A stretch of DNA of 38,621 bases from a virus (Duplodnaviria > Heunggongvirae > Uroviricota > Caudoviricetes). Location: IMG/VR virus record IMGVR_UViG_2851955134_000002; one strand, 5' to 3'. Of this stretch, positions 1-13,221 are shown in pieces. A program made the position numbers and the translations under genes. How positions within the stretch are numbered: position 1 is the first letter of the stretch; every line of letters starts with the position of its first letter. The notes beneath the pieces are model-generated. The model did not search any database. It was not told where the DNA came from and saw nothing but the letters and a program-made list of their open reading frames with translations.

Positions 1-1005
1 TTAATCCCCCGTGGACACTGCGTGGACACTCACGCCACCTTTCAGCGGATTAAGGGCCACCGCATCCTGCAGGTAATCCGGTGCAAAATGTGCATATGCC
101 ATTGTTTGCTGAATGGTTGCGTGGCCAAGAATCTTCTGAAGCGCAATAATGTTTCCTCCGTTCATCACAAAATGGCTGGCGAACGTATGCCGCAGCACAT
201 GTGCAGCCTGGCCTTTTGGCAAATCGGGCTTAACTCTTTTCAGCGCCAAGCAGAATTCCCGGTACTTCACCTCAAACAAGCCGCCTGTTTCTCTGGTTTT
301 GATCGCCTCACAAACTGCCTGCGAAATTGGCACTGTTCTCTTTCGGCCATTTTTGGTTTCAAGAAACGTTACACGGTTATGAACTATCTGTTCACCACGA
401 AGCTTACAAGCTTCACTCCAGCGCGCCCCCGTGCTTAAACACAAAAGCGCAACACGCCAGTAATCGCCCTCCAGTGTATCGAGCAATAGCGCCACTTCCT
501 TCTGGGACAGGAAAGCCATTTCTCGTGGAGATACATAAAGAATAGAAATTCCCCTTACCGGATGTTCTGCATCCCAGAGGCCTATTTTCTTCAGTACGGT
601 AAACATTCCGGATAACCGATTCATGTATCTGTTAGCAGATGACGGTTTCAATCCATCAGCTATCTTTTGAGAACGCCACGCGATAATTTTTAGCTTATCA
701 AGATCCACAGCCTGCATATCAGCGCCAAGCTCATTGATTATGTTGCGCAGTTGTTTTCGGTCTTCTTCCGCCTTACGCCTGTGCTGGCCATGATACATCC
801 ACCACAACTCAAGCAAATCATTTAGCGTTCGACGATCACGGTAGCCCTGTATATATTCCCGCTTTTCAGCGTTCGCCATGATGTAGCGTTCAGTGGCCAC
901 CGCTACCGATTTTTTGTCAAATACCTTACGCACGCGCTTTCCCTTGCGTCCGTTCGGCCTGATGTCCAGCAAATAACGACCATCTTCGAGCTTCTTAATC
1001 GACAT
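1..1005 (-). CDS. int: Tyrosine integrase, P2 Int-like
   Basis: Translation from MSIKKLEDGRYLLDIRPNGRKGKRVRKVFDKK follows my recollection of P2 Int along its length, including the C-terminal LRHTFASHF...GHATIQQTMAYAHF catalytic region; start moved from the track's 1020 to the ATG at 1005, which has a GGAGGG RBS. Confidence 0.9.
   Translation of the reverse strand: MSIKKLEDGRYLLDIRPNGRKGKRVRKVFDKKSVAVATERYIMANAEKREYIQGYRDRRTLNDLLELWWMYHGQHRRKAEEDRKQLRNIINELGADMQAVDLDKLKIIAWRSQKIADGLKPSSANRYMNRLSGMFTVLKKIGLWDAEHPVRGISILYVSPREMAFLSQKEVALLLDTLEGDYWRVALLCLSTGARWSEACKLRGEQIVHNRVTFLETKNGRKRTVPISQAVCEAIKTRETGGLFEVKYREFCLALKRVKPDLPKGQAAHVLRHTFASHFVMNGGNIIALQKILGHATIQQTMAYAHFAPDYLQDAVALNPLKGGVSVHAVSTGD
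11..29. repeat. attL core: left copy of a 19-bp direct repeat (gtggacactgcgtggacac)
   Basis: Identical to 37441-37459 except one mismatch (a/t at the 5th base); it lies at the 3' end of the integrase gene and its partner lies just past ogr/hok, as expected for prophage ends. Confidence 0.7.
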
Positions 1006-1101
1006 TGCGAAGCCCTCCAATGAACCGCTCTACAATTTCTCCAGCCTCTTTCCAGCAATAATCAGACCAGACAAAAAGCAGGTCTAACCAGTTTTCTGGC
1101 C

Positions 1102-1689
1102 TCAGCGGGATAATTTTTGGATTGTTTTGGTTGAAACCTGATCGCCCTCCGAATCGCAGGAGCCATCAAGAGAGAGAGCCGGAGAAATCTGCCCAACCTC
1201 CGGCATCGTTTCATCTGTTGATAACCAGTAAGCGTATTTCTTAAATTTAGGATGTTTCGTAACCTTAAGTAAGGCCCCCTCTGTTACTTGCTTCCCTCTC
1301 GCCTCATAGTTAGTTACCGTTCCATAAGGTAGCCCAACACAATCCGCAAACTCCTGGCGGGTCATCCCTTCAGCTTCACGCATCAAGCGAAATTTTGCCC
1401 CAAGCCCAGATGCCACTTCAGACTCATCATCTACTAACGGAGTAGGCGAAACTTGCCCATTTTCAGCAGCCGAATGCCCAGTCATAAGCCAAAGCGCGTA
1501 TTTCTTGAACCTTTCAACCTGTAAAACTCGCTCAACCAACTCTGCTCTGGCAGGTTGATGCCCGGTTTCATATTTCTGAATAGTATTGAGCGGAATTCCT
1601 GTAATATCAGAGAATTGACGCCTACTTAACTCCTCCGCCTCTCTCATCATCATGAGTCTTTGCGAATAGTCTATTGACACGTTTCTCAT
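1102..1689 (-). CDS. Immunity repressor with two tandem HTH (XRE-like) modules
   Basis: Divergent from cox; two about 85-aa repeats each carry an HTH (RRQFSDITGIPLNTIQKYETG and RQEFADCVGLPYGTVTNYEARG) followed by KFKKYA(L/Y)WL. The track ORF starts on TTG at 1737; the first ATG is at 1689, so the start is uncertain. Confidence 0.7.
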   Translation of the reverse strand: MRNVSIDYSQRLMMMREAEELSRRQFSDITGIPLNTIQKYETGHQPARAELVERVLQVERFKKYALWLMTGHSAAENGQVSPTPLVDDESEVASGLGAKFRLMREAEGMTRQEFADCVGLPYGTVTNYEARGKQVTEGALLKVTKHPKFKKYAYWLSTDETMPEVGQISPALSLDGSCDSEGDQVSTKTIQKLSR

Positions 1690-1801
1690 ATGAGAAATAT
1701 ACTCCTTTCTAAATTGAGAAATGTTAAAACACCTCAATTGGCCTAAGTAAGCCTATATAAGCCATTTTGAGCCATTCGAACGAATTAGGGAGATTACCAC
1801 A

Positions 1802-2089
1802 ATGAGCGAATCAGAGCTTGGGGGGTTCATTCAGGTAGCACCATATCCACTTGAAGCGGTGCCATATCAACTATTCGCCAAGATGATCGGCCGCAAGGAA
1901 TCCACAGTCAGAACCATGATTGACGCAGCAAAGCTACCGACAATTGACTTTGTGAAACCAGGTTCAGTAAAGACGCGTGCATCAGAAAACTGGGTATATC
2001 TGCCAGCATTTAACGAAGGCATGCGCAAAGCGTTTTTTGAGCAACCGAAAGAACGCCGCGATGCATGGTTGTTGTGGCTGGGGCTTTAG
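1802..2089 (+). CDS. cox: Cox-like excisionase / transcriptional regulator
   Basis: 95 aa; AVPYQLFAKMIG...WVYLPAFNEG...RRDAWLLWLGL resembles P2 Cox as I recall it; first gene of the rightward early operon, divergent from the repressor. Confidence 0.8.
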   Translation: MSESELGGFIQVAPYPLEAVPYQLFAKMIGRKESTVRTMIDAAKLPTIDFVKPGSVKTRASENWVYLPAFNEGMRKAFFEQPKERRDAWLLWLGL

Positions 2090-2899: not shown

Positions 2900-3154
2900 A
2901 TGGCAACAACAGTAAAAGACATGACAGAGATAGCCGCGGCTTACACTCTTATCATACACCGGCTCATAGCTAATAATGCCTGTGATGCACTAAATACGAG
3001 AAAACCTTTACCGAAAGCAAAAAGCGATATTATCAGCGGATTAAAGGCGCTACTGGAATGTGCAGGCTATGCAGATGATTACGCGGCATGCATGGTTATT
3101 AACGATACAATTGAGCGCATTGAATCAGGTAAACCATTAAGAGATTTTGTTTAA
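2900..3154 (+). CDS. Hypothetical early-operon protein
   Basis: 84-aa ATG ORF with GAGGG upstream. Confidence 0.5.
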   Translation: MATTVKDMTEIAAAYTLIIHRLIANNACDALNTRKPLPKAKSDIISGLKALLECAGYADDYAACMVINDTIERIESGKPLRDFV

Positions 3155-8283: not shown

Positions 8284-9243
8284 ATGAAAATTTGTATCGA
8301 CGACGGCTCCACCAACATCAAGCTGGCATGGACTGAGAACGGCGAACGCCGCAACGCCATCAGCCCGAACAGCTTCAAGTCGGAATGGTCTGCGCCGTTC
8401 GGTGGCACGCAGCCCGCGAACTACATGCTTGATGGCGTGCGCTATGGTTTTGATCCGGTCAGCGATCGCTTTGTCCAGACGACCGACACGCAATACCAAT
8501 ACAGCGATGTGAATGTCATTGCCATTCATCACGCGCTGGTCAAATCAGGCATCACGCCACAGGAGGTGGATGTGGTTGTCACCCTGCCACTGAGCGAGTA
8601 TTTCGACACAAACGCACAGCCGGACATGGCCAACATCAACCGCAAAAAAGCGAACGTTATGCGCCCGGTGGAGTACCAGAACGGCGAAGCATTCACTATC
8701 CGTAACGTGCGGGTTATGCCTGAATCCATTCCGGCTGGCTTTAAGGCACTGGCTGACATGAGTCCATTTGAATCTCTGCTGATTGTGGATTTAGGCGGAA
8801 CCACGCTGGATGTGGCAAAGGTTCAGGGGCAACTGGCAGGCATCAGCCAGGTATTTTGCGATCCACACGTAGGCGTTTCACTGATGACCGATGCCGTACT
8901 GTCGGTGATGGCCACTAACGGTATGCGTACCAGTCACCACATCGCCAATACCATTATCGAACATCGCCATGATGAAGCCTGGCTGCGCCAGCACATCCAC
9001 AATGTCGCGCATTACGACAGCCTGATGGCGGTTATTCGTGAAAAGGAAGAAACTCTGAAACAACGCGTGATCCGCGCGCTGGCGGGGTTTTCGGGGTACG
9101 GTCGGGTGATGGTTGTCGGTGGAGGGGCGGAGATTGTGGCTCCGGCGGTACATGACGCTTACGGCCTCAACGCAAACATTCACACAACACCGGAGCCACA
9201 GTTTGCCCTGGTTAATGGACTCCATGACATGGACAGGGAGTGA
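8284..9243 (+). CDS. parM: ParM/StbA-like actin-family partition ATPase
   Basis: N-terminus MKICIDDGSTNIKLAW...ISPNSFK...YQYSDVNVIAIHHAL...VMPESIPAGF...IVDLGGTTLD...MVVGGGAE closely tracks plasmid R1 ParM as I recall it, at similar length (319 aa). Confidence 0.85.
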   Translation: MKICIDDGSTNIKLAWTENGERRNAISPNSFKSEWSAPFGGTQPANYMLDGVRYGFDPVSDRFVQTTDTQYQYSDVNVIAIHHALVKSGITPQEVDVVVTLPLSEYFDTNAQPDMANINRKKANVMRPVEYQNGEAFTIRNVRVMPESIPAGFKALADMSPFESLLIVDLGGTTLDVAKVQGQLAGISQVFCDPHVGVSLMTDAVLSVMATNGMRTSHHIANTIIEHRHDEAWLRQHIHNVAHYDSLMAVIREKEETLKQRVIRALAGFSGYGRVMVVGGGAEIVAPAVHDAYGLNANIHTTPEPQFALVNGLHDMDRE

Positions 9244-9559: not shown

Positions 9560-9937
9560 CATCAGGGCGTATTCGCCCTGCCACCAATCCCATAACATAA
9601 AGAACGGGGTGCAAATCACTATGCACCCCGTTCCAATACAAACCATCAGAAGATCTACACATCTTTCTCAAATGGCCAAGTAATCGAGCTGGTTCAGGAA
9701 TAAGCATGCTGCCAACACAAGTGAAGGAGATAAAACTGTAGAACTGATCAATCGTTGGAAACAAGTATTGACAATATGTTCGAGTAACCCAACTGGATAG
9801 ATTTTATGCTGATTATCCATACAGTAAAAAAGTGAGGATACTCTTTGAATAACGCCAGCAAGAGTGGTAACATTAGGCACTGATTTTCATCAATGCAGTT
9901 ACCAGCTTACACAAGCTTATGTTTTATTGGGGGTTTT

Positions 9938-11020
9938 ATGGTAAACGTGAGGGAGGATGAACTTTTCAAACTCATCGAGCAAGGCATCAAAGGCAACGCA
10001 AATGCATTTACACTCCTATGCAGAAAGATGATTAACAACATCCGTAAAAATGATGAGGCTTTAGCTTCTAAGCTGGCTTCGTTAATTGCTGAGGGAACAG
10101 TATTACGTGGGGCATCTAGTAAGGCTCCTATGCCTGTGGATGGAGACTCCAGACGAAACCTTTTGCAGGAAACATCTGTCAACGCAATTGTTGAAGAACC
10201 TGTATGGAATACGGATATCTCAAAGAAGCTGGAGTCAATTGTTAACGAAAGAGAGAATGCTGTTTCTTTGTTCAAAGCTGGTCTTGAACCTGTGAAGACG
10301 GTTTTACTTTCTGGCCCGCCAGGCGTAGGCAAAACAATGTCCGCACATTGGCTTGCTGCAAAGTTAAATTTACCTCTTTTAACATTGGATCTCTCATCTG
10401 TAATGAGTTCTCTTTTGGGAAAAACAGGTAATAATATTAAATCCGTTATGGATTATGCCAAAGAGAAACCATGTGTCCTTTTGCTTGATGAATTTGATGC
10501 TGTTGCAAAAAGACGTGATGATGACAGGGACGTTGGAGAATTAAAACGTTTAGTTACTGTACTCCTACAGACCATAGATGAGTGGCCAGCGACCTCGCTT
10601 CTTGTTGCTGCGACTAATCACCCTGATATCTTAGATCCGGCTGTTTGGCGTCGATTTGAGCACATCCTTAAATTTAATATGCCATCAGTAGAACTGATAG
10701 ATAGATATTTAGTCAATCATAATATTGAACCTGAACTATCTAAAAAACTTGCACCATTATTAGATGGCATGTCCTTTGCCATCATTAACCGTATTTTGAA
10801 TTTCTCCAAAAAGAATGAGGTACTTAGAAATATTCCATTTGAAAGCTCATTAATAGAAGCCGTAATTACGGAGAGGGTTTCATTGGATGAATTTAGCGAT
10901 AATGATCTCAATATAATTAAATATCATTTTGACGGTTTTTCAAATAGGAAGATAGCTGAATTAGTTGGTGTTTCACATCCAACAATCGCGAATAAATTAC
11001 AAAAGTGGGGGATTAAATGA
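9938..11020 (+). CDS. AAA+ ATPase with C-terminal helix-turn-helix; first gene of candidate defence pair
   Basis: Walker A (LLSGPPGVGKT), Walker B (VLLLDEFD), sensor-1 (LLVAATN), arginine-finger region (AVWRRFE) and a C-terminal HTH (SNRKIAELVGVSHPTIANKL); AT-rich; start at ATG 9938 (GGGGG upstream) preferred over the track's 9893. Confidence 0.8.
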   Translation: MVNVREDELFKLIEQGIKGNANAFTLLCRKMINNIRKNDEALASKLASLIAEGTVLRGASSKAPMPVDGDSRRNLLQETSVNAIVEEPVWNTDISKKLESIVNERENAVSLFKAGLEPVKTVLLSGPPGVGKTMSAHWLAAKLNLPLLTLDLSSVMSSLLGKTGNNIKSVMDYAKEKPCVLLLDEFDAVAKRRDDDRDVGELKRLVTVLLQTIDEWPATSLLVAATNHPDILDPAVWRRFEHILKFNMPSVELIDRYLVNHNIEPELSKKLAPLLDGMSFAIINRILNFSKKNEVLRNIPFESSLIEAVITERVSLDEFSDNDLNIIKYHFDGFSNRKIAELVGVSHPTIANKLQKWGIK

Positions 11021-13221
11021 TGGAAAGGAACTTACTTTTAGGTAACGGTCATGTTCTGACAAAAAAGGAACCTTTGCCTAAAGGAAGGGATGGTAAGCGC
11101 TATCCCTATACTCTTGAAGAAGTAAGGGAGCATTTAAACCCAGAGATTGATACTTTACTCTCACGCTTTCGCAGTTTGGATGATGCGGCTAAGCCAAGGG
11201 GGGAGAGTGTATTCAATTTAACTTTACACCCAGCGTTTTTGGGTAAAAGCTACTTTCCGGAAGGATTACTTAGAGCGACAGGTTTACGGGATGTCGGTAG
11301 CCGTCAGGTAATCATTCGCCCACGGAAAGCGGCACGTCAGTGCGATCAGAATAAGGACTTAGTAACGGCGCAACTGTTTGTTAGCGGTGATGATGATGCC
11401 GTTATAAGATTTAAGGAAATTTTAAATTCCCCTACAGCTCCGAAGGGCGTACAAAAGGATTTGATCGAAATTGAAAGTGTTAGCTTTTTTGAAGGAAAAG
11501 AGAGAGCACGCAATTTTGAGCATGCGAAAAGTGATTTGATAAAATTTGAAGTGGTTCTTCATGCTGGGGTTGAAGACGATGATATCGTTAAAGCCTATAT
11601 TAGCTATGCGGCACAATATGGTGTCTCTGTTGATTACAAAAGTAGAATCCAAGTTGGTGGACTGACTTTCATCGTTGCACACGCGCGACCTGAAGATATG
11701 AAAAAAACACTCGATTTTTCATTAATCCGCGTTGTGCGGCCGATGCCGTCTCTCAGGTGTACTCAGCCGAACATTGTCAGAAAGTTATCTAATATAGTTA
11801 CACCGGAGCTCCCTAATTCTAAAGCTGTTCTTGAATCCGAACGTATTGCCATTTTTGATGGTGGCTTGGGGACAGCTGACTTGAGTAATTGGGTTACGGA
11901 ATACGTGTATCCAGACACCAAAGAAACAAGCGGATTATTATTGCAGCACGGTAATGAAGTAACATCCACTTTCTTATTCGGACGTGTCGAGGAAAATGCA
12001 CCTTCTTTTAAAAGACCGTTTATGAATGTAGATCATTATAGAGTTCTTTCACCGACATCAGGTGACAATGGCAATTGGGATTTATTTGATGTCCTTAAGA
12101 AAATACAGTCCGTTCTTGATAGTGGTGACTATAAGTTCGCTAATCTAAGTATTGGTCCTCATCTTCCAATTGGTGATGATGAGGTTCATGTATGGACTGC
12201 TGTTTTAGACCAAATCTGTGCTAAGCATGGGATATTACTTACTGTTGCTGTTGGGAATGATGGCAATGAGGACGGTGATGCAGCGAGAATACAACCTCCT
12301 TCCGATATGGTAAACGCGCTAGCGATTGGTGCTGCTGATCGTAGCGGTGAAAAATGGGGGCGGGCACCATATAGCTGTATTGGCCCAGGCAGAAGCCCCG
12401 GATTCGTTAAACCTGATGGTGTTATTTTTGGTGGAAGCGACGACGAGCCTTTTTACACTTACAACCCTCTGCTTGGTTCTATAGTTGGAGTTCAAGGAAC
12501 CAGTTATGCCTCTCCATTAGCATTGAGAACGGCCGCTGGAGTTGCGGCTCTATCAGGAACTCCATTGAACACCATTGCATTGAAAGCGTTGCTTGTTCAT
12601 CATGCTGAAACATCAAGAAAATATTCGCGTGAACATATCGGTTGGGGACGGTTTAGTGAGGATCCTAACGTTTTAATCGATTGTCCAAATGATACTGCTA
12701 CAGTAATTTACTATGGTTCATTAGCAAAAAATAAATATTTAAGGGCACCGATCCCATTCCCTGATGTTCCATTTGACGAAGCATTTGAGCTTACCGCTAC
12801 TTTATGCATTCAAACCCCAGTAGATCCTGAACATTCAGTAAACTATACAAGGGCCGGTATGCAGGTAACTTTCCGCCCAAGATTCGGCCTTGACGATACC
12901 GATACAGATGATTTCTTTGGTCAAAAAAGCCAGTATAAGACTGAAAGGGAGTGTAGGAGTGAAGGTCATAAGTGGGAAACTTGTTTGCACAGAAGCAAAA
13001 AGTTCAGTACTGATACATTATTAAGCGATCCAGTTTTTGATATACGGTATCATGCCCGAGATTCTTCGCGCCATGTTAAGGGAGTTTCAGCCCCTGATAT
13101 GCAATATGCGATGGTAATAAGCGTAAGGGTAAAAGACTTTGATTTATATAATGTTATTCGCCAGCGATATACAATTCTGAATCCTATTCAACTGCGCACA
13201 CAAATTTCTCTCGACACGTAA
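11017..13221 (+). CDS. S8 subtilisin-like serine protease with about 270-aa N-terminal domain of unknown function; second gene of candidate defence pair
   Basis: Subtilase motifs in the canonical D-H-S order (IAIFDGGLG, LQHGNEVTS, oxyanion-hole VAVGNDG, GTSYASP); start overlaps the ATPase stop (ATGA), implying coupled translation. Confidence 0.8.
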   Translation: MMERNLLLGNGHVLTKKEPLPKGRDGKRYPYTLEEVREHLNPEIDTLLSRFRSLDDAAKPRGESVFNLTLHPAFLGKSYFPEGLLRATGLRDVGSRQVIIRPRKAARQCDQNKDLVTAQLFVSGDDDAVIRFKEILNSPTAPKGVQKDLIEIESVSFFEGKERARNFEHAKSDLIKFEVVLHAGVEDDDIVKAYISYAAQYGVSVDYKSRIQVGGLTFIVAHARPEDMKKTLDFSLIRVVRPMPSLRCTQPNIVRKLSNIVTPELPNSKAVLESERIAIFDGGLGTADLSNWVTEYVYPDTKETSGLLLQHGNEVTSTFLFGRVEENAPSFKRPFMNVDHYRVLSPTSGDNGNWDLFDVLKKIQSVLDSGDYKFANLSIGPHLPIGDDEVHVWTAVLDQICAKHGILLTVAVGNDGNEDGDAARIQPPSDMVNALAIGAADRSGEKWGRAPYSCIGPGRSPGFVKPDGVIFGGSDDEPFYTYNPLLGSIVGVQGTSYASPLALRTAAGVAALSGTPLNTIALKALLVHHAETSRKYSREHIGWGRFSEDPNVLIDCPNDTATVIYYGSLAKNKYLRAPIPFPDVPFDEAFELTATLCIQTPVDPEHSVNYTRAGMQVTFRPRFGLDDTDTDDFFGQKSQYKTERECRSEGHKWETCLHRSKKFSTDTLLSDPVFDIRYHARDSSRHVKGVSAPDMQYAMVISVRVKDFDLYNVIRQRYTILNPIQLRTQISLDT

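Follow-up and report, generated by a model that had tools for sequence, protein, structure and literature searches.

The C repressors of P2-like temperate phages are small, single-domain proteins of about 100 amino acids (aa). In the published model of P2 C, one symmetric dimer occupies each operator copy and two dimers bind cooperatively (PMC2995052). Repressors of different immunity have been argued to be selected against heterodimerization, with divergence of their dimer interfaces (PMC2995052). Here, we describe a C-type immunity repressor encoded in a viral DNA stretch of 38 621 nucleotides (Caudoviricetes; IMG/VR record IMGVR_UViG_2851955134_000002; this whole stretch is called the window below). 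The entire window corresponds to a P88-like (Xuanwuvirus) prophage integrated beside pdxB in Escherichia coli. The comparisons presented below identify the repressor as a fusion of two modules of different immunity classes, each of which also circulates as a single-module repressor. Each module is homologous in sequence and fold to P2 C (99 aa; PDB 2XCJ/2L49) and to its heteroimmune relatives W-phi C and P2 Hy dis C. The likeness to P2 C extends to the position of the gene, before int and facing cox, and to the two repeated operators around the −10 element of the early promoter Pe. However, P2 C consists of a single homodimerizing module, whereas the 195-aa chain described here contains two complete modules of different class. 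The operator half-sites of P2 are also described as non-palindromic (PMC2995052), whereas the predicted operators here are direct repeats of dyad-symmetric sites.

Several other described systems share part of these properties. The controller proteins of restriction–modification systems, for example C.Esp1396I, are small dimers of the XRE type that occupy tandem palindromic sites cooperatively, each site taking one dimer, and they are structural neighbours of the model of our protein; they are, however, single-module proteins and not phage immunity repressors. The engineered single-chain 434 repressors of Simoncsits and co-workers reportedly consist of covalently linked DNA-binding domains, and their heterodimeric versions are said to read asymmetric operators. 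They resemble the present protein in that a short peptide linker connects two XRE-type helix–turn–helix (HTH) domains whose specificities may differ. They act on one hybrid operator with a half-site for each domain, whereas no hybrid operator is found here and the predicted site is that of a homodimer. The Wolbachia prophage protein Wmk, with two HTH domains, and the HTH arrays of 4–11 modules also carry several XRE HTH domains per chain, but they do not belong to the P2 C family (KY-WL helix, GQIxP motif), are not part of a C/cox switch and have no known role in immunity. Coliphage 186 CI and lambda CI are about twice the size of P2 C and control the lytic promoter through an N-terminal HTH. 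Their C-terminal half is an unrelated oligomerization domain, whereas in our protein this half is a complete HTH repressor in its own right; 186 CI has no sequence similarity to C (PMC2995052, PMC3448106). We found no description of a two-module C repressor in the literature searched, in which the coverage of subscription journals is incomplete; the P2 C structure paper and a phylogeny of P2-like regulatory regions likewise describe none.

The repressor gene and its parts are listed here; all coordinates are those of the window.

1102..1689, minus strand: C-type immunity repressor gene, 195 aa plus stop; stop codon 1102–1104, ATG 1687–1689; RefSeq WP_023277586, 195 aa

1426..1689, minus strand: module 1 (aa 1–88), ‘X’ immunity type; five helices, then the degenerate motif GQVSPTPLVDD; HTH (helices 2–3, aa 23–42) at 1564–1623

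1405..1425, minus strand: linker (aa 89–95, ESEVASG) between the modules

1162..1404, minus strand: module 2 (aa 96–176), P88_4B11 immunity type; five helices and the intact motif GQISPALSLDG; HTH (aa 111–129) at 1303–1359

1105..1161, minus strand: disordered C-terminal tail (aa 177–195), AlphaFold2 pLDDT about 30

The gene lies in an uninterrupted minus-strand open reading frame (ORF) at 1102..1737, which encodes 211 aa if counted from a TTG codon; the end coordinate 1737 given in the preliminary description of this DNA corresponds to this TTG, in frame upstream of the ATG. The probable start of the gene is the ATG at 1689–1687 (MRNVSIDY...), since RefSeq uses the same start in the six complete E. 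coli genomes in which the locus is present with 99.9% identity and since the alignment with P2 C begins there. The reading frame runs from one module to the other without a stop codon or frameshift. The double length cannot be ascribed to two separate genes or to an error of assembly, because the same ORF is present in the six complete genomes and in a sister family (see below).

The two halves of the 195-aa protein align with 31 identities over 82 residues (38%) and 59% positives (E = 8e-20). The Pfam profiles HTH_31 and HTH_3 each match two stretches of the repressor, and so does the P2 C family profile phrog_147 (100 positions; E = 3.3e-55), of which positions 5–98 are covered by residues 96–188. 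The two consecutive homologous HTH modules proposed in the preliminary description are thus confirmed, as is the conserved segment KFKKYA-WL, which appears as RFKKYALWL (aa 60–68) in module 1 and KFKKYAYWL (aa 148–156) in module 2 and corresponds to helix 5 of P2 C. The same description had considered that the second HTH might not be intact, or that a stop or frameshift might split the ORF into two genes; module 2 proved complete and the ORF uninterrupted. P2 C (2XCJ/2L49) is the sole solved relative detected by sequence (E = 4e-17). Both modules fit the P2 C family in sequence and fold (five-helix XRE domain, K-Y-x-x-W helix 5 and GQIxP motif), but the protein is not of the small (about 100 aa), single-domain type. 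As it has two complete modules and 195 aa, we regard it as a variant architecture of the P2 C family and not as a canonical member. The total length is 195 aa in every full-length double retrieved, of the window type as well as of the sister family.

An AlphaFold2 model, computed from an alignment of 21 two-module proteins (doubles only), contains two five-helix modules (H8–70 and H96–157, pLDDT about 75–90), a linker region of low confidence (aa 74–93) and a disordered tail (aa 159–195). The top structural match of the model is P2 C (2xcj_A, TMt 0.72), and searches of PDB and BFVD for the fold returned no chain with the same two-module arrangement (TMq 0.34 or less). The pTM of the model is intermediate (0.49), a score that does not discriminate between packing of the modules within a chain and between chains.

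The neighbouring genes used in the comparison with related phages are the following.

1..1020, minus strand: P2-type tyrosine integrase (int), downstream of the repressor in the lysogenic operon; relatives annotate 334 aa, 1–1005

1802..2089, plus strand: cox (Cox family excisionase/repressor), first gene of the early operon; PF10743, E = 1.3e-22; nucleotide identity to P88_4B11 98.7%

The order int (−), C (−), cox (+) is the same in all relatives compared, and the locus is identified by homology as the lysis–lysogeny switch of a P2-like phage. Together with the homology to P2 C, this context upholds the earlier assignment of the gene as the immunity (C) repressor of a P2-like prophage.

The closest phages carry single-module C genes, coding for 100–122 aa, at the same position. 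The nucleotide identity of the window is 97–98% to PhiR44_2 and P88_4B11, 93% to Shae_phiSM and 90% to Chuche; int and cox, beside the repressor, are 95–99% identical to those of P88_4B11. The comparison with P88_4B11 reveals a mosaic. The identity is 95% from int as far as window 1405, where the C gene of P88_4B11 has its start codon, and the match resumes at 1745, at 98.7%, through cox; the 339 bases between 1405 and 1745 are absent from P88_4B11 and Chuche-like. Accordingly, the core of module 1 is about 83% identical to the core of the phage Chuche C protein and has the same recognition helix, IPLNTIQKYE. Module 2 (aa 96–195) differs from the complete 100-aa C of P88_4B11 at six of 99 residues (about 94% identity). 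The recognition helix of module 2 (aa 122–129) shows a single change, V to A at the last residue (equivalent to Ser39 of P2), and no change is found at the positions equivalent to the dimer interface of P2 C (interface list from PMC2995052).

A recent tandem duplication could therefore be ruled out, since the modules are just 38% identical to each other and each has a far closer free-standing relative. The internal duplication assumed in the preliminary description is thus replaced by a fusion of two immunity classes. P88_4B11 (C of 100 aa), Chuche (about 107 aa) and Shae_phiSM (106 aa) each have one module and the matching operator, whereas this prophage has both modules and the Chuche-type operator alone. 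In its DNA, the linker still resembles to some extent the promoter/operator region that precedes the P88_4B11 C gene, which suggests that the double arose from the single-module form and not the reverse. Independent initiation of module 2 at its old start has been lost, since CTT has replaced the ATG there.

The promoter and operator elements predicted between the repressor gene and cox are as follows.

1674..1703, plus strand: early promoter Pe; TTGACA 1674–1679, 18-nt spacer, TATACT 1698–1703; 11/12 consensus; directed toward cox; conserved in all relatives

1682..1697, no strand assigned: predicted operator O1, TTTCTCATATGAGAAA; perfect 16-bp palindrome; overlaps the repressor start codon and the Pe spacer

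1706..1721, no strand assigned: predicted operator O2, TTTCTAAATTGAGAAA; spaced 24 bp from O1 and immediately past the Pe −10; its two arms are kept in four lineages of doubles as well as in Chuche

O1 and O2 fall within 22-nt direct repeats detected by a repeat finder at 1677–1698 and 1701–1722, with a spacing of 24, so that the paired direct-repeat operators anticipated beside the gene are indeed present. The dyad TTTCT-N6-AGAAA occurs twice in the 38.6-kb window, in O1 and O2 only (0.01 expected). The same two dyads, with both arms and the 24-bp spacing, are found in two E. coli loci and one Citrobacter locus of the sister family and in the single-module phage Chuche. The heteroimmune relatives have other sites at this place: P88_4B11 carries ATGCCAYATCGGGCA twice at its Pe with 31 bp spacing (operator sequence ATGCCATATCGGGCA, two copies), and Shae carries an ATGTGAT-type repeat twice, also with 31 bp spacing.

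The P88-type operator ATGCCAYATCGGGCA has no match across the window with up to three mismatches. A loose P88-type dyad, ATGCC-N6-GGCAT, allowing one mismatch, gave three matches in the window where two were expected, all distant from the switch and attributable to chance. Likewise, the hybrid X/P88 dyad TTTCT-N6-GGCAT gave one match in the window against three expected by chance, and hence no real hybrid site. As judged from these scans, the operator sequence and spacing are unchanged from those of the single-module phage, and module 2 has no predicted target in its own genome. The preliminary description had proposed a single-chain dimer that could alter the spacing requirements of the operator; this was not borne out, as the sequence, the dyad symmetry and the 24-bp spacing are those of single-module Chuche. 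Both operators are of the module-1 type and dyad-symmetric, which points to pairing of module 1 with module 1 of another chain and not with module 2.

The Pe −35 element lies inside codons 4–6 of the repressor gene, and this element and the left arm of O1 (in the segment 1674–1697) are both contained in its first six codons. The operator, the promoter and the N-terminus of module 1 are consequently physically inseparable, which explains why the operator-matching module is always N-terminal.

The window protein was found in the protein database at 99% (P0001). About twenty further clusters of exactly 195 aa and 62–67% identity, from E. coli and Citrobacter, constitute the sister family; some of its clusters are present on hundreds of contigs (for example 416 for P0008 and 193 for P0015). 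Module 1 and the linker of the sister family are about 90% identical to the window in nucleotide sequence. The core of module 2 is about 50% identical, and similarity is higher again in the tail and in int. Module 2 of the sister family is of the Shae_phiSM type, and its recognition helix is the same, residue for residue, as in the Shae-type single repressor of E. coli strain 10153; the Cox proteins of this strain and of a sister-family locus have the identical accession. These comparisons indicate that an X cassette, made of the operators, Pe, module 1 and the linker, has become attached to resident repressors of two kinds, each on its own backbone.

Prevalence was determined in 5426 complete E. 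coli genomes. The window form is present in six of them and the sister form in two, and all eight occurrences of the X module with its operator are two-module repressors. Single repressors of the P88_4B11 type are found in 216 of these genomes and those of the Shae type in about 54; the module-2 types thus correspond to the two common resident classes at this attachment site. Free-standing X-type repressors were observed only in phage Chuche and in a few draft or metagenome contigs (P0033–P0038).

The strength of selection differs between the parts of the protein. Between the core of module 2 and P88_4B11 C there are 13 synonymous and three non-synonymous differences (dN/dS 0.05). Among the sister-family doubles of E. 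coli and Citrobacter, dN/dS is 0.05–0.07 for the core of module 2 (at dS 0.43–1.1), 0.07–0.14 for the core of module 1, about 0.5 for the linker and 0.7 to above 1 for the tail segment (aa 171–195). By this measure, module 2 is under strong purifying selection and as constrained as module 1. In the tail segment (1105–1176, minus strand), 9.5–11.5 non-synonymous against 0.5 synonymous differences were counted between doubles, which are small numbers; the pattern could have arisen by diversifying selection or mosaic recombination, or from a constraint that the upstream region of int imposes.

An exhaustive search with a profile built from single-module repressors only retrieved 4999 proteins at E of 0.001 or less. 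The best 150 of these include other two-module C-like proteins that form separate 50%-identity clusters (P0060, P0063, P0070, P0083, P0158 and P0181) and a three-module C-like protein of 229 aa (P0072). Within these independent multi-module proteins, the modules are mostly 32–41% identical to each other; one pair reaches 69%. A further example, on the IMG/VR contig 3300028679_000011 (L006), is a 167-aa two-module C-like repressor that is 87% identical to P0063 and is encoded between a cox-like gene and a P2-type integrase. These separate clusters and the C/cox context of L006 indicate that the architecture recurs in other P2-like lineages. The single-module profile also matches long proteins (300–2000 aa) with 4–11 tandem XRE-HTH stretches, among them P0059, P0061, P0071 and P0102.

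In L006, inspection by eye of positions 2935–3000 revealed the dyad GGGGAA-N5-TTCCCC and, some 21 bp away, a dyad of different sequence, TTGGA-N9-TCCAA; the repeat tool gave no confirmation of this pair. Its single-module relatives (L007, L010, L011 and L013) have two copies of TGTTCC-N6-GGAACA at the corresponding place. L006 may thus have one dyad per module, that is, a different use of the same architecture.

We tentatively favour the view that the window protein is a bivalent repressor, in which module 1 would run the switch of the phage itself and module 2 would keep the specificity of a rival or ancestral class, providing dual immunity. For this reading we draw on sequence comparison, namely the architecture, the mosaic origin, the identity of the operators with those of the single-module X phage, the absence of a module-2 site and the purifying selection on module 2; from these we infer the homotypic pairing between chains, the binding of DNA by module 2 and the dual-immunity phenotype. 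Module 1 would pair with module 1 of a second chain and bind the dyad-symmetric O1 and O2 that bracket the Pe −10, and occupancy of these sites would shut off cox and the early operon, as with single-module C proteins. Module 2 would pair with module 2 of the partner chain, and the target of this pair, acting in trans, would be the Pe operators of P88_4B11-type phages that enter the cell. The lysogen would then be immune to two immunity classes, and the phage itself, being under X operators, would escape immunity of the P88_4B11 type.

Several observations fit this bivalent repressor. Module 2 bears the recognition helix of a free-living heteroimmune repressor (P88_4B11 C, or the Shae type in the sister family). 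The operator cognate to module 2 is absent from its own genome and present twice at the Pe of the rival P88_4B11. The class of module 2 is that of P88_4B11, which is also the class of the backbone of this prophage and the commonest one at this E. coli attachment site. As module 2 is intact and conserved but has no home site, its most plausible role would be the repression of incoming phages of that class.

Some points weigh against this reading. All the support for it is in silico, and this includes the proposed binding of DNA by module 2. The match between the module-2 types and the commonest resident classes could reflect the opportunity for recombination and not selection for dual immunity. 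The invariant length of 195 aa and the short linker could equally mean a fixed packing within the chain, and the AlphaFold2 model, with its pTM of 0.49, is ambiguous on the arrangement of the modules. For module 2, dS is higher than for module 1, so that part of its synonymous divergence may have arisen in free-standing genes and have come in by recombination, and the selection signal in the fused state would then be weaker than the figures suggest. Finally, doubles are rare (8 of 5426 complete genomes), which is unexpected if they confer a large competitive advantage.

The first alternative, which we consider unlikely, is a single-chain pseudo-dimer in which the two modules of one chain pack like the subunits of P2 C and one chain occupies each operator copy. 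Module 1 would read the repeat and module 2 would make the less specific contacts of the second subunit, reading of P88-type sites through module 2 being possible in principle. This arrangement agrees with the published model of P2 C, in which one dimer binds per half-site and a single HTH makes specific contacts (PMC2995052), and with the short linker and constant length of the doubles. The strictly conserved surface motif GQIAPALxxxG is, moreover, degenerate in module 1 (GQVSPTPLVDD) and intact in module 2, as if the two formed one unit, and the pTM is above expectation for two fully independent 65-residue domains. However, the perfect 16-bp palindrome of O1 and the two arms of O2, conserved in four double lineages as in Chuche, fit a symmetric X:X dimer, and the sequence and spacing of the operators are the same as in the single-module phage. 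One and the same module 1 would also need to pack on two very different partner surfaces, of the P88 and Shae types, and the homodimer-interface residues of module 2 are identical to those of the free-standing repressor.

Those retained interface residues are also compatible with a role of module 2 as an oligomerization or cooperativity domain, which would bridge module-1 dimers on O1 and O2 in the manner of the C-terminal domain of lambda or 186 CI, its DNA-binding surface being irrelevant. P2 C requires cooperative binding of two dimers on two half-sites (PMC2995052), module 2 is under purifying selection, and it has no operator in its own genome. We nevertheless judge this role quite unlikely: the purifying selection includes the recognition helix, and in both families this helix is the same as in free repressors in circulation, a match that dimerization alone does not need, and single-module Chuche works with the same operators without such a domain.

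It is improbable that the double is a neutral by-product of illegitimate recombination, in which a P88_4B11-type phage was switched to X immunity and the old repressor was left as an in-frame C-terminal passenger. The mosaic junctions exactly at the old start codon, the resemblance of the linker to the old promoter/operator region and the rarity of doubles in complete genomes would all follow from such an event. The selection data argue against it, with dN/dS of 0.05–0.07 in the core of module 2 among doubles compared with about 0.5 in the linker and 0.7 or more in the tail. The architecture also persists in E. coli and Citrobacter on hundreds of contigs, and the same arrangement is found with two module-2 types and in unrelated P2-like lineages.

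An anti-repressor decoy, in which the extra module would titrate or block a C-binding anti-repressor (for example P4 epsilon (E) of satellite phages) and shield the prophage from hijacking, is highly improbable: P4 E binds C and thereby inactivates P2, with a proposed contact at the tail and the conserved surface of C (PMC2995052), and module 2 retains that surface while the tail evolves fast, but no anti-repressor or satellite was identified here, the module-2 type is linked to no anti-repressor and a decoy would not need the conserved recognition helix.

Beyond this locus, we put forward with due caution, as a possibility, that P2-like temperate phages repeatedly fuse their own C to an intact C of a competitor or ancestor, so that the operator-switched phage is no longer subject to the immunity of its common relatives, which its own lysogens continue to repress. 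Such a protein would be a one-protein asymmetric weapon in prophage competition, and a natural exception to the proposed selection against the mixing of immunities. The fusion of two immunity classes under selection contrasts with the view of small homodimeric C proteins that diverge to avoid mixing (PMC2995052).

If module 2 of the bivalent repressor is active, one gene would give a lysogen immunity to two phage classes, and fusion would offer a phage a simple route to change its immunity while keeping the old one. This would bear on prophage competition, on the prediction of superinfection immunity from genomes and on host-range problems in phage therapy. Two mechanistic points of this family could also be addressed with the protein as a natural reagent: the number of HTHs per C dimer that read an operator repeat (one or both), and the way in which the dimers on O1 and O2 cooperate. 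For annotation, the 195-aa ‘helix-turn-helix domain-containing proteins’ should be recognized as immunity repressors with two (predicted) specificities.

The remaining feature of the switch region lies just upstream of cox.

1748..1773, plus strand: direct repeats TAAGCC / TAAGCC / TGAGCC, candidate Cox-binding boxes in the Pc region; 10-bp spacing; conserved in all five phages compared

It is plausible that these TAAGCC-type repeats are Cox boxes over Pc. A minus-strand consensus scan for the Pc promoter itself gave none above the threshold.

Outside the switch, the window carries a ParM/StbA-type actin-like segregation protein (8284–9243, plus strand; PF06406, E = 1.8e-82), for which P88 and Shae_phiSM have a corresponding annotation. 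The segment 9893–13221 (plus strand) encodes an anti-phage defence pair, IetA/IetS. IetA (9893–11020; PADLOC IetA, E = 2.9e-89) is an AAA ATPase and IetS (11017–13221; IetS, E = 5e-41) is a subtilase. The pair is flanked by a replication gene/ParM-like gene and by the portal gene, the usual hotspot for accessory genes in P2-like phages. In NZ_CM125652.1 (E. coli ZH177), one of the six complete genomes that carry the locus, a second place matches the int–C–cox region, and this strain may be a double lysogen with another Xuanwuvirus-type prophage.

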